Shown in pieces: positions 6,306-57,580 of a DNA stretch of 64,000 bases (the first letter of the stretch is position 1; each line of letters starts with the position of its first letter). Made by a program: the position numbers and the translations under genes. The stretch spans positions 128,603 to 192,602 of the forward strand of contig CAXHJY010000589.1 in assembly GCA_964016885.1 (NCBI GenBank), read 5' to 3'. The DNA is from Eledone cirrhosa. Taxonomy: Eukaryota. A model generated the notes under the pieces. The model was not told the DNA's origin, ran no database searches, and saw only the letters and a list, made by a program, of their open reading frames with translations.

Positions 6306-6759
6306 GCCTTAGTCCACAGTTATGGACTTTTCCATTGTATTTGATTTTGTTTCTTTTATCTCTTTTATCTCATTTCTCTCCACTCCTGTCATTAACTCAC
6401 CTGAACCACACCTCTCCACATATCTACTTATAACATCTACCTAGCCTAGTCACCACCCCCAACTTCTACCCACTTACCTATCTATCCACCCGCCCGTCAC
6501 TTCGACTGTGTGTCTGTTTGTCTATCTACTTATCTATACATGCATCTCTCTCTCTCTCTCTCTCTCTCTCTCTCTCTCTCTCTCTCTCTCTCTCTCTCTA
6601 TATATATATATATATATATATATATATATATATATAGGAGGTGAGTTTTATTGTAGTACAATAAAGCAATGCAGATATCGGATAAGAAGCACTCTACAGT
6701 TTGTTGATTTAAAACTGCACTATCCACAAGTGTTTTTTAGCCTTCATATCATGTTCTCC

Positions 6760-6830
6760 TGTTTTATCTGATGAAAACACAAATATTATTGCATGATGAT
6801 GTTTGTTTTTGAAATGCGCATAATAAAATA
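6760..6830 (+). ncRNA. Hammerhead ribozyme (helix III palindrome TGCGCA, AUA triplet)
   Basis: TGTTTTAT-CTGATGA-(AAAcACAAATAT...ATGTTTGTtTTT)-GAAA-TGCGCA-TA-ATAAAATA; 8-bp stem I and long stem II; element bounded by (TA)n on both sides. Confidence 0.8.
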
Positions 6831-7003
6831 CAAGGAACTCCTTTAACCATCTTTTGATCTTATATATATATATATATATATATATATATATATATATATA
6901 TATATAAATGAAGTAATTCCGTCGGAAAAGTCCAGGAAAAAAGAGTGCTCTATGTAGGTAACAGAGCTTAATAGTTATGTAATGAACAACATAAGGCAAT
7001 TAT

Positions 7004-7062
7004 TTCATTTACCAGTGGTTTCTTAAAAGCAAAAACATTTTGCTTTCAATCATCAGAATGAA
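7004..7062 (-). ncRNA. Hammerhead ribozyme, CCACTGG family (left arm of fold-back)
   Basis: Reverse complement of the 7128-7186 motif. Confidence 0.8.
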
Positions 7063-7127
7063 AAAATGCAATCTATGATTGCATTTTTGTTTTTAAAATC
7101 CAAAGTCAATAAATACGCCAGGATTTT

Positions 7128-7186
7128 TTCATTCTGATGATTGAAAGCAAAATGTTTTTGTTTTTAAGAAACCACTGGTAAATGAA
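7128..7186 (+). ncRNA. Hammerhead ribozyme, CCACTGG family
   Basis: TTCATT-CTGATGA-TTGAAAGCAAAA tgt TTTTGTTTTTAA-GAAA-CCA c TGG-TA-AATGAA; all three stems pair; GUA triplet. Confidence 0.85.
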
Positions 7187-8246
7187 ATAATTGCCTTATG
7201 TTGTTTATTACATAACTATATATATATATATATATATATAACAAAGGAATTGTGGTAAGGAACCAGTTGGACCATAACGCACCAGAGTACTCAATACTTA
7301 GGGTAGTAGAGTGGGAAATAGGAAAAAAATATATACATATATAGGGGTTATATACATACATCGGTAGGGGTTCTCCTACATGGATATAAAGTAGTGGCCA
7401 TACTCGAAAACGAGTTGGCAGCCACCATGTATGTATGTATGTATGTATGTCTCTTAATTTCGAGTACATTTTTTTTGACCGGCCACCTTCCTGGTGGCAA
7501 GGTTGTAAAAGAAAAGAAATTGTCATCCCTTGAATCGCAAGAATGTTTTGCAAATTTTGAAGGTGCCAGCTATCGCAGCCATTTGTAGACTATGAATTAG
7601 GGAGCTGCGCTATGTATGTATGTATGTATGTATGTATGTATGTATGTATGTTCTTCCGAAAGTGTGTAAATATGTATATACACATGTACCGCGCGGTTAA
7701 ACCACTGGGAGTAAAGGACCCCTAGCCTTTGTCAGGGCATTCTTCTAGGAGAAGGCAACTCAGGTAACTGGGATAACTCTGATATAAAACCTGCGGCTCA
7801 GTAGTTACCGATGATGTTGATCTTTTCCTCTTTTCGGGTTATAGCTATTGTCGCTCAGAGAGTGGGATTGGCTCAGTGCACAGTCTTTCATTACTTTAAA
7901 AAATATCTTCACGCACAGGCATTGCACGATAGAATTAATAAATAATTATTAATAATGGTATATCGTGCAATGACCATACTCGATAATGAGGGGGAAGCCA
8001 TCATGTATGTATGTATGTATGTATCTGTCCGTGCATCTATCTGTCTTTCTACAAACCTATCCATCCATCGTCCCAACTTTCAACCCATACATCTCTCCGC
8101 CACACTAAACCAACAATAAAACATGACGTACACCGTTTCGAACAAATTTTATTTCGTTTGATTTTACTTCGTTTTAATCTATTTTATCTCCCTTTCTTTC
8201 TTGGAACAACACACAACAGCAAAACCTACAATAACAGTATTAACCT

Positions 8247-9009
8247 CTACAACGTACGTATTCTTGTTGGCAAACGTACAATAACGTCTACAACGTACGT
8301 ATTCATGTTGGCAAACGTACAATAACGTCTACAACGTACGTATTTTTGTTAGCAAACGTACAATAATGTCTACAACGTACGTATTCTTGTTGGAAAACGT
8401 ACAATAACGTCTACAACGTACGTATTTTTGTTAGCAAACGTACAATAATGTCTACAACGTACGTATTTTTGTTAGCAAACGTACAATAACGTCTACAACG
8501 TACGTATTCTTGTTGGCAAACGTACTATAACGTCTACAACGTACCTATTTTTGTTAGCAAACGTACAATAACGTCTACAACGTACGTATGTTTGTTAGCA
8601 AACGTACAATAATGTCTACAACGTACGTATTTTTAATCGCAAACGTACAATAACGTCTACAACGTACGTATTTTTGTTCGCAAACGTACAATAACGTCTA
8701 CAACGTACGTATGTTTGTTAGCAAACGCACAATAACGTGTTCAACGTAATGTTTTTGTTAGCAAACGTACAATAACGTCTACAACGTACGTATTTTTGTT
8801 CGCAAACGTACAATAAAGTCTACAACGCACAATAACGTCTACAACGTACGTATTTTTGTTCGCAAACGTACAATAAAGTCTACAACGCACAATAACGTCT
8901 ACAACGTACGTATTTTTGTTAGCAGACGTACAATAACGTGTTCAATGTACGTATTTTTGTTAGCAGACGTACAATAACGTGTTCAATGTACGTATTTTTG
9001 TTAGCAAAC
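8247..9009. repeat. 41-bp ACGT-rich minisatellite, about 18 copies
   Basis: Unit CTACAACGTACGTATTYTTGTTRGCAAACGTACAATAACGT. Confidence 0.95.
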
Positions 9010-55666: not shown

Positions 55667-56187
55667 GTATATATATATATATGTATATATATATATATAT
55701 ATGTGTATATATATATATATGTATATATATATATTTATATATATGTGTATATATATATATGTGTATATATATATATATGTATATATATATATATATATAT
55801 GTGTATATATATATATATATATGTGTATACATATATATATGTATATATATATGTGTATACATATATATATGTATATATATATATATATGTGTATATATAA
55901 ATATATGTATATATATATATATATATATGTGTATACATATATATATGTATATATATATATATATATATATGTGTATATATATATATATGTATATATATAT
56001 ATATATATGTGTATATATATATATATGTATATATATATATGTATATATATATATATATATATATATATATATATATATGTGTATACATATATATATGTAT
56101 ATATATATATATATATATATATATATGTGTATACATATATATATGTATATATATATATATATATGTGTATATATATATATATATGTA

Positions 56188-56705
56188 TAAGGTTTCTTGG
56201 TGAGGAGGGTGACTTTGGACATCCTGCAGGACTAAAAACAAAACCTGTCAAAAGGCAAAGGAGCTCTTAAGAGTCAATGGCCATCCAAAATCACCGGAGA
56301 GATGACCCCTTAGCCTTTGTCAAGGCAGAATTCTAGGAGAAGGAAAACTCTGATATAACACCTGCAACCCTGATGGTATCCAATGATGTTGACTTGTTCT
56401 TCTTTTTGGTAAATATCATCTTGGTTAAGAGAGTGGGACTGGCTTTGTGCAGTGCCTTTGCTCACTATAAAAGCTTCACGGCACAGGCATTGCTTTATAT
56501 CTGGAGATCTCTCTGCACTTGTCGTCACATGGTACCATGGGCCCAGCACTATGTGTCAGTAATTGTCACAAGTGTAGTGTTTGTACCAGAGTTTTCAAGT
56601 CGCTGGCTGGACTAAAAAGTCACACTCGTTCAGCGCATCGGTAGGGGTTCTCCTACATGGATATAAAGTAGTGGCCGTACTCGAAAACGAGTTGGCAGCC
56701 ACCAT
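56188..56705 (+). mobile_element. Second, longer copy of the ~450-bp element
   Basis: Identity to 15661-16113 is visible directly and in shared spurious ORFs; flanked by (TA)n. Confidence 0.6.
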
Positions 56706-57202
56706 ATATATATATATATATATATATATATATATATATATATGTATATATATATATATATATGTGTATATATATATATATATATATATGTGTATATATA
56801 TATATATATATATATGTGTATATATATATATATATATATATGTGTATATATATATATATGTGTATATATATATATATGTGTATATATATATATATGTGTA
56901 TATATATATATATGTGTATATATATATATATGTGTATATATATATATATATATATATATATATATATATATATATATATATATATATATATATATATATA
57001 TATATATATAAGAGCGGTTGCTGGTCCGGCAGAAATTAGAATTTGGATTTAATGCTCTGAAATAGCGATATATATGTGAAGATAAACACAGAATATTCGA
57101 AAATATTCTGTATCTTTATAATAAACATTTTGAAGACCTAATCGCTATAGAATAGAATACATCACGTATTACAATTTGAGATTCTCGATAAAAGCAAGGG
57201 AA

Positions 57203-57245
57203 GTAACCTACGCGTTTCATTCTTATTAGAAATCATCAGGATTAC
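57203..57245 (-). ncRNA. Hammerhead ribozyme, CGCG family (left arm of fold-back)
   Basis: Reverse complement of 57377-57419. Confidence 0.8.
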
Positions 57246-57376
57246 ATATCCAGTGCTTTTATCGAGAATTCTAATTTCTGCCGGACCGGCAACCGCTCTT
57301 TCAAACCAGTTCCTGTACACAGCTAAGTATTCTATAAGTCTCTAGCTGTGTCATTCTCGATAAAATCACTGGATAT

Positions 57377-57419
57377 GTAATCCTGATGATTTCTAATAAG
57401 AATGAAACGCGTAGGTTAC
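57377..57419 (+). ncRNA. Minimal hammerhead ribozyme, CGCG family
   Basis: GTAATC-CTGATGA-tTTCT aata AGAAt-GAAA-CGCG-TA-GGTTAC, enclosed by an outer CTCGATAAAA/TTTTATCGAG stem. Confidence 0.85.
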
Positions 57420-57580
57420 TTCCCTTGCTTTTATCGAGAATCTCAAATTGTAATACGTGATGTATTCTATTCTATAGCGATTAGGTCTTCAAAATGTTTA
57501 TTATAAACATACAGAATATTTTCGAATATTCTGTGTTTATCTTCACATATATATCGCTATTTCAGAGCATTAAATCCAAA

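Follow-up and report, generated by a model that had tools for sequence, protein, structure and literature searches.

Hammerhead motifs beside (TA)n tracts in Eledone cirrhosa and their probable origin in Penelope-like elements

A stretch of 64,000 nucleotides of Eledone cirrhosa DNA (GCA_964016885.1, contig CAXHJY010000589.1, positions 128,603 to 192,602), here called the window, carries numerous hammerhead ribozyme (HHR) motifs in short segments bounded by (TA)n. [quoted passage not shown] Among the 16 motifs outside a tandem array, 13 belong to families that were traced elsewhere in the genome to the 3' pLTR of PLEs encoding a reverse transcriptase (RT) and a GIY-YIG endonuclease (EN), 12 of Hydra type and 1 of Neptune type. 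The remaining three are pieces of tandem retrozymes without open reading frames (ORFs).

Hammerhead motifs in the window

A strict type-I HHR descriptor was used, which demands a CUGANGA/GAAA/UH core, no fewer than 4 bp in helix I and 3 bp in helix II, and a helix III that is either palindromic or a hairpin. It found 25 HHRs with the type-I core and helices I to III, namely the 16 outside the array and 9 within an array of 468-bp units. In 200 local dinucleotide shuffles of positions 6600-57600, the mean was 0.03 strict HHRs (maximum 1), and bare CTGANGA cores numbered 12.4 in the shuffles versus 35 in the window. The excess over shuffled sequence that the original prediction had named as a check is therefore present, and all 15 hammerheads that it listed were located, 14 of them by the strict scan. 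Helix III is CCACTGG at 7056-, 7134+, 27215-, and 27564+; TATGTA or TATATA at 17334-, 20763-, 20964+, 25479+, 42089-, and 50594-; TGCGCA at 6768+; CGCG at 57239- and 57383+; GTAC at 28180-; and GAAC at 11405+. The GAAC motif, with a non-palindromic helix III of 2 bp, failed the strict test and passes a looser scan only. The strict scan added 40960+ (CGATCG, with a stem II of about 100 nt) and 41636- (looped helix III) to this list, and a one-mismatch scan added 24486-. Cores at 25338-, 36420-, 16947-, 16769+, 11006-, and 43463+ failed the descriptor and were taken as decayed or chance matches. A TA-bounded element at 25230-25402 (-), also found at L029:2782-2921 (L numbers denote genomic loci), has a CTGAAGA core and a good stem II, with no adjacent helix I partner in either copy. 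The best 150 of 528 matches in an Rfam scan were all microsatellite-like miRNA noise and included no hammerhead family, and the output of an inverted-repeat finder was dominated by TA runs.

The elements of the window are as follows (HHR positions are those of the core).
6631..6865: family C insertion, with an inverted long 3' tip at 6631-6704 (-) and a direct arm with HHR 6768+ (TGCGCA); Hydra-type pLTR, full-length partner in L088
6905..7218: family A1 inverted pair, HHRs 7056- (long arm) and 7134+ (short arm); 83-89% identity to A2 ends
11170..11594, +: family F 3' end, weak HHR 11405 (GAAC), Neptune/Nematis type
17141..17431: family B insertion, HHR 17334- (long arm) and a short inverted fragment
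20582..21064: family B inverted pair, HHRs 20763- (long arm) and 20964+ (short arm)
24414..24764, -: family O arm, variant core CAGAAGA (U4A) at 24486; 3' end of a Hydra-type PLE
25430..25676, +: family B arm, HHR 25479
25696-25824: second family O pair, cut inside the HHR
27065..27643: family A2 inverted pair, HHRs 27215- (long arm) and 27564+ (short arm); 3' end of a Hydra-type PLE
27983..28332, -: family E arm, HHR 28180 (GTAC); 3' end of a Neptune-type PLE
38033..41143, +: family H Hydra-type PLE, 5'-truncated and frameshifted, with RT (YRDD), CxCX5C linker, GIY-YIG, 3' untranslated region (UTR), and pLTR with HHR 40960 (CGATCG); (TA)n on both sides
40852..40952, +: 5'-truncated repeat resembling a short interspersed element (SINE), whose insertion site is helix I of the hammerhead of family H
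41342..41943, -: family I, about 1.3 units of a 468-bp tandem retrozyme, HHR 41636 with looped helix III
41992..42139, -: family B2 arm, HHR 42089 (TATATA)
44248..44402, +: family P arm, decayed core
7238-7327, 20478-20567, 21100-21217 (pair), 24304-24378, 26913-27051, 36937-37124 (pair), 41245-41326, 50184-50378 (pair): 11 further family P arms, cut within or after stem II
50400..50678, -: family B1 long arm, HHR 50594
51317..55670, +: family G 468-bp tandem array, 9 HHRs, helix III CTAG; retrozyme type
57010..57588: family D inverted pair, HHRs 57239- and 57383+ (CGCG); pieces of a 312-bp tandem retrozyme

Probable Penelope-like families behind the motifs

The copies of families A, B, C, H, P, and O are the 3' ends left by 5' truncation of Hydra-type PLEs; families E and F represent Neptune-type PLE ends. 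Each of these eight families reaches EN or RT in at least one locus, which provides the link to autonomous PLEs through the pLTR that had been suggested as a check. The proposed set of non-autonomous or truncated ribozyme retroelements sharing a TA niche is thus upheld; most of its members are truncated PLE ends, and only D, I, and the array are non-autonomous.

In family H, the body is joined to the HHR in the window and in four of nine other loci (L013, L016, L018, L019). Copies L044 and L050 have open frames of about 800-830 residues with an HHR upstream of the ORF as a pLTR. A first-look search with the family H RT core returned 33,260 candidates, all related families included, and the 150 scored had 91-100% identity. 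Family C has an intact 821-residue frame between two C HHRs together with an inverted copy (L088). In family A2, a long UTR lies 5' of the HHR, and EN and RT follow further 5' (L119, L120, L121, L126). The order RT and EN, UTR, HHR is found for family B in L157/L038 and L158/L135, and L168 contains an EN end with 96% identity to the window copy at 50594. Family P shows a pLTR-ORF-pLTR arrangement across L142 and L151, with a 300-nt unread gap between them, and the 12 arms of this family in the window mostly lack the first half of the ribozyme. Family O has a Hydra-type EN upstream in L197, L198, and L070. Other copies of families E and F lie downstream of a GIY-YIG C-terminus with CX4CxxC, accompanied in E by an internal Cys pair, as in Neptune/Nematis-type PLEs; the assignment of both families to the Neptune type is probable and was made from this EN end.

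The PLE open frames of 800-834 residues contain YRDD and YIG or YFG, so that RT and GIY-YIG lie in a single ORF. The pLTRs with an HHR, partial tandems, and an inverted 5'-truncated copy that are typical of PLEs were found in L088, L044, L050, and L142 with L151. RT cores of six lineages share 37-58% identity in a comparison that excluded rows L119, L125, L141, L143, and L159 and duplicates. The RTs in L141, L143, and L159 were rejected as parts of P or B5, because they are located beyond the 3' ends and belong to other insertions. Features of the Hydra clade (Craig et al. 2021, PMC8557442) are shared by these elements. RWR or RWT and DKT motifs occur in H, C, and P, and RWK in the homologue alignment. 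A CxCX5C linker and CxxC with CxH at the EN end, in the absence of CCHH, are complete in H, C, and P, partial in Q and B2, and read from the DNA in O. The Naiad clade, with an N-terminal EN, a CxC domain, and no canonical HHR, was rejected, as the EN is C-terminal here and HHRs are present.

Family Q, whose HHR has a looped helix III, was observed at 23961-24281 in the window and at L135:3800, L136:170, L080:1144, and L119:6497; in L135 it stands directly upstream of a Hydra-type ORF. In addition, of 20 distinct family H cores, 6 have a SINE-like repeat that ends right at helix I (window 40852-40952; L016, L018, L019 twice, L044). These insertions appear to be independent, because their 5' ends and duplications differ. 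The 3' ends of the repeat are usually followed by ATTAT, and tail annealing may therefore explain the helix I site.

Association with (TA)n and genome-wide scale

The cleavage site lies within 200 nt of a downstream (TA)6 in 14 of the 16 non-array motifs versus 22.8% of non-repetitive control positions (binomial p 8e-8, where the arms of pairs are not independent). TA-bounded segments measure 132-602 bp for 15 of the 16 motifs, and the last motif terminates the 3.1-kb PLE. The enrichment beside (TA)n that had been asked for as a check therefore held. TA follows immediately after the arm end in 68 of 73 B, 25 of 32 A, 27 of 29 C, 17 of 23 H, 54 of 60 P, and 11 of 12 O arms, with read-through pLTRs among the misses. 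This agrees with the (TA)n insertion preference of the Hydra clade.

Forty random 10-kb stretches from 26 large contigs (399,800 nt of the 3.0-Gb genome) contained 33 strict HHRs, distributed over 13 of the 40 loci, whereas 12 shuffles gave 0-1. Extrapolation gives about 2.5e5 HHRs in the genome (bootstrap 1.1-4.1e5), or 1.7e5 without two arrays. After removal of 10 array motifs and 4 near locus ends, 15 of 19 motifs lie within 200 nt of (TA)6, compared with 12.6% of same-locus controls. The noted density of one motif per 2-3 kb is correct for the window, at one per 2 kb, but this is about six times the density of the random sample. First-look searches gave 1150 candidates for B1, 1058 for H, 1607 for A2, 515 for D, 297 for C, 2258 for P, 525 for O, 1836 for E, and 1273 for I; these counts are lower bounds and not copy numbers.

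Several observations weigh against the origin from PLEs in (TA)n. No RT family was found by Pfam, GIY-YIG appeared below threshold only (E 5e-4 and 0.024), and a PDB profile search gave 0 matches, so the RT call rests on motifs and the published clade description. The Hydra-type assignment is likewise putative, made from motifs and that description. Family A1 is linked to PLEs solely through its 83-89% identity to the A2 end, and family D shares with a PLE pLTR (family Q) a stretch of only about 28 nt around the HHR. Folded as single strands, 12 motifs had weak z-scores (+0.4 to -2.2), several motifs are not folded as HHRs at minimum energy, and the G10.1-C11.1 pair is absent in many families. 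Empty orthologous sites were not observed, so (TA)n is a presumed pre-existing target.

Two 3' ends and unequal inverted pairs

The 3' ends of each family form two sharp classes, counted in nt after GAAA: about 58-65 and about 150 in B, about 50 and about 116 in A, about 55 and 144 in C, 78 and about 210 in H, 43 and 120 in P, about 50 (also 87) and 136 in O, and 151 and about 177 in D. The two fixed ends are 65-135 nt apart in PLE families. In reference arms, the short ends stop just before TA or AT. The 5' ends are variable, the inner junctions of pairs vary, and single arms are common. Among 40 distinct inverted pairs closer than 1 kb, 33 combine a long and a short end, six a long and another end, and one a short and another end; none has two long or two short ends. 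The arms are unequal in all 40, consistent with the tail at one end that is typical of PLEs. If the ends were independent, about half of the 33 pairs classed as long or short would be alike. The end-class bins were set after the histograms had been viewed, and most loci were taken from best-hit searches. Three wider pairs have two long ends (L088, L145, L146), and that in L088 is a read-through pLTR. Family D shows one long and one short end in all four two-armed fetched loci, and its pair in the window is an exception, with ends of 178 and about 210.

In the mechanism proposed from published PLE biochemistry, the RT/GIY-YIG protein would nick (TA)n, and reverse transcription would begin at either of two internal sites, both downstream of the HHR. 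Early stops would be usual, and only a few hundred bases around the HHR would be inserted; in many cases two such pieces would lie head to head, one with a long and the other with a short end. Elements would pile up in the same TA tracts by re-using the TA of earlier insertions, because each insertion leaves TA on both sides. The insertions extend 40-210 nt beyond the cleavage site, and the RNA that was copied was thus uncleaved or re-ligated.

The pairing of long with short ends suggests that each strand has a single start site. A tentative proposal, rated at less than even odds, is that the pairs result from coordinated two-strand priming, that retrozymes with the two-end signature are direct passengers of Hydra-type PLEs, and that the U4A family implies that cleavage is dispensable in vivo. 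One PLE complex would then nick both (TA)n strands, one cDNA would start from the long site and the other from the short site, and the far ends of both truncated cDNAs would be joined. As an alternative, the first cDNA might be copied by fold-back and resolved at an internal TA step, which would fit the position of the short ends just before TA or AT.

Ribozyme fold and core variants

Stem II of family B shows compensatory changes. Across 33 variants, five pairs carry double changes, with 50 double-change cells compared with 15.3 in shuffled and 2-16 in slid alignments, kinship being ignored in these counts. In family I, helix III contains a change from A-U to G-C. The catalytic core is invariant across divergent B subfamilies. 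The strict descriptor gave 0 matches in family P, and it was rejected that this family lacks an HHR, as a compensatory U3:A8 core pair is present in 22 of 22 full copies. The motifs are inferred from sequence to self-cleave, probably as dimers through the palindromic helix III.

It has also been considered that the same elements transpose as uncleaved RNA and that their hammerheads are catalytically unimportant relics or protein-binding marks. This is consistent with the insertions running past the cleavage site and with family O, in which core position 4 is non-U in 29 of 29 copies (A in 28 of 29; eight copies come from loci fetched for other reasons), yet 525 first-look candidates exist and the full-length matches among the 40 scored have 96-100% identity. 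HHR mutants of the Poseidon PLE also insert normally in vitro (PMC11167929). However, the core invariance in B and the retention of U3:A8 in P argue for selection on the catalytic fold, and the relic explanation is rather unlikely. Natural HHR variants include U3-A8, U4C, and U10.1-U11.1 (PMC3088659); the U4A core was found neither in the text of that paper nor in a literature search that covered neither figures nor subscription papers.

Tandem retrozymes and independent elements

Families D (312 bp), I (468 bp), and G (468 bp) are tandem and ORF-less, with one type-I HHR per unit, as in retrozymes. Family D reaches 17 tandem units in L040, and four strict-scan copies of family G were also found in the random locus L103. 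Contigs from three public runs self-close after 311-312 nt, which fits a DNA tandem and an RNA circle equally well. Among the runs listed, none was recorded as RNA. In contigs of other public runs, of unrecorded kind, family D has changes at window positions 57380 and 57415 that preserve helix I pairing. A further tandem retrozyme at L089:4999-9647 has a 664-bp unit, helix III CCATGG, and six strict HHRs. Families D and I are flanked by TA and have inverted arms of the PLE type. D, I, and G probably borrow PLE machinery, as suggested by the shared TA target, by these inverted arms, and by the long and short ends of D.

These tandem families fit the explanation that all short elements are independent non-autonomous ribozyme SINEs or retrozymes with fixed 5' ends of their own, as do the many B1 copies that stop about 100 nt upstream of the HHR. 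Such an explanation is improbable and refuted as the general case, since each of the eight PLE families named above varies in its 5' extent and reaches EN or RT in at least one locus. Miniature inverted-repeat transposable elements (MITEs), that is, DNA transposons at TA with an incidental HHR, could account for the TA flanks and the near-perfect inverted repeats of many copies, but they are scarcely conceivable given the unequal outer arm ends, the varying inner junctions, the common single arms, and arms that lead into RT/GIY-YIG ORFs instead of a transposase. Chance matches in AT-rich palindromic DNA beside abundant microsatellites might be expected with 28 TA runs per 10 kb of the window and with 191 bare cores in the random sample, of which only 33 pass the strict descriptor, but the excess over shuffles in both the window and the sample, the covariation, and the invariant cores within divergent families already refute them.

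Comparison with known systems

The Hydra clade has HHRs and targets (TA)n, and it includes the octopus family Hydra-1_Obim of Octopus bimaculoides (PMC8557442, File S1). The elements described here share with it the C-terminal GIY-YIG, RW(K/R/T), DKT, CxCX5C, and CxxC/CxH, as well as insertion into (TA)n, inverted truncated copies, and a 3'-proximal HHR whose small helix III is palindromic. They differ in their long UTRs and pLTR-to-pLTR spacing of about 3.5-3.9 kb versus less than 3 kb, which is a tendency in that source and not a strict criterion, in tails of 65-135 nt versus 30-40 bp, and in the coexistence of at least seven lineages in one genome. By eye, no HHR matched the printed Hydra-1_oBim HHR. 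A literature search on octopus with hammerhead, Penelope, or retrozyme gave this paper as the only relevant match.

Minimal HHRs were reported in PLE pLTRs, mostly in truncated copies and with opposite-strand pairs 100-700 bp apart, together with a U3-A8 core, low in vitro activity, and predicted dimeric activity (Cervera and de la Pena 2014, PMC4209133). The pLTR location, the predominance of single motifs from truncated PLEs, the opposite-strand pairs, and the U3-A8 variant recur here. In contrast, the 1.1-4.1e5 copies extrapolated here exceed the 2,000-9,000 found there with different descriptors, G10.1-C11.1 is mostly absent, and the U4A core is fixed in a family. Non-LTR retrozymes have been described and a PLE origin argued (Cervera and de la Pena 2020, PMC7229834; Li et al. 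2026, bioRxiv 10.64898/2026.07.22.740005). The tandem units of D, I, G, and the family in L089, which lack ORFs and carry a single type-I HHR apiece, resemble them, but units of 468 and 664 bp are longer than the 170-400 nt RNAs described in the two sources. Unlike retrozymes as described there, D and I have PLE-type inverted arms and TA flanks, and D has two fixed ends; a term search of both texts found no description of retrozymes as 'inverted'. The PLE protein of Poseidon PAc of Anolis nicks and extends both strands of AT-rich DNA, two internal RNA start sites downstream of the HHR define the tail, and HHR cleavage is not needed in vitro (Frangieh et al. 2024, PMC11167929). Poseidon belongs to another clade, and the ends here are 25-135 nt apart, with one long and one short per insertion.

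Published work thus already covers the location of HHRs in pLTRs, inverted pairs of truncated copies, the targeting of (TA)n by the Hydra clade, and retrozymes. What goes beyond the portions of the literature compared is the scale, how many lineages coexist, the strict pairing of long with short ends together with the long tails, a tandem retrozyme that bears the PLE-type signature, and a family in which U4A is fixed. Many young families with near-intact ORFs coexist in this genome. With their two sharp start sites per family and their natural core variants (U3:A8 and U4A), they are ready substrates for questions about how inverted PLE insertions arise, whether cleavage matters, and which enzyme mobilizes retrozymes. 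The total suggested for this one animal genome is about a quarter of a million HHR motifs, and a search restricted to canonical cores misses two abundant families.

Other repeats in the window

Very long degenerate (TA)n tracts occupy 57589-64000 (6.4 kb, up to the window end), 50688-51494, and 55668-56183. Short pieces with zinc-finger-like 3' ends or ends resembling long interspersed elements (LINEs), followed by (AT)n or (TATG)n, lie at 28434-28913 (-), 56380-56703, 15986-16110, and 7330-7430. These are presumably RTE-type LINE ends, and non-ribozyme elements may thus share the microsatellite niche. Minisatellites are located at 12878-13282, 32080-32392, 2838-3596, 29527-30239, and 44437-44982, several of which are composed of pieces of the same SINE-like repeat that ends at the family H hammerhead.

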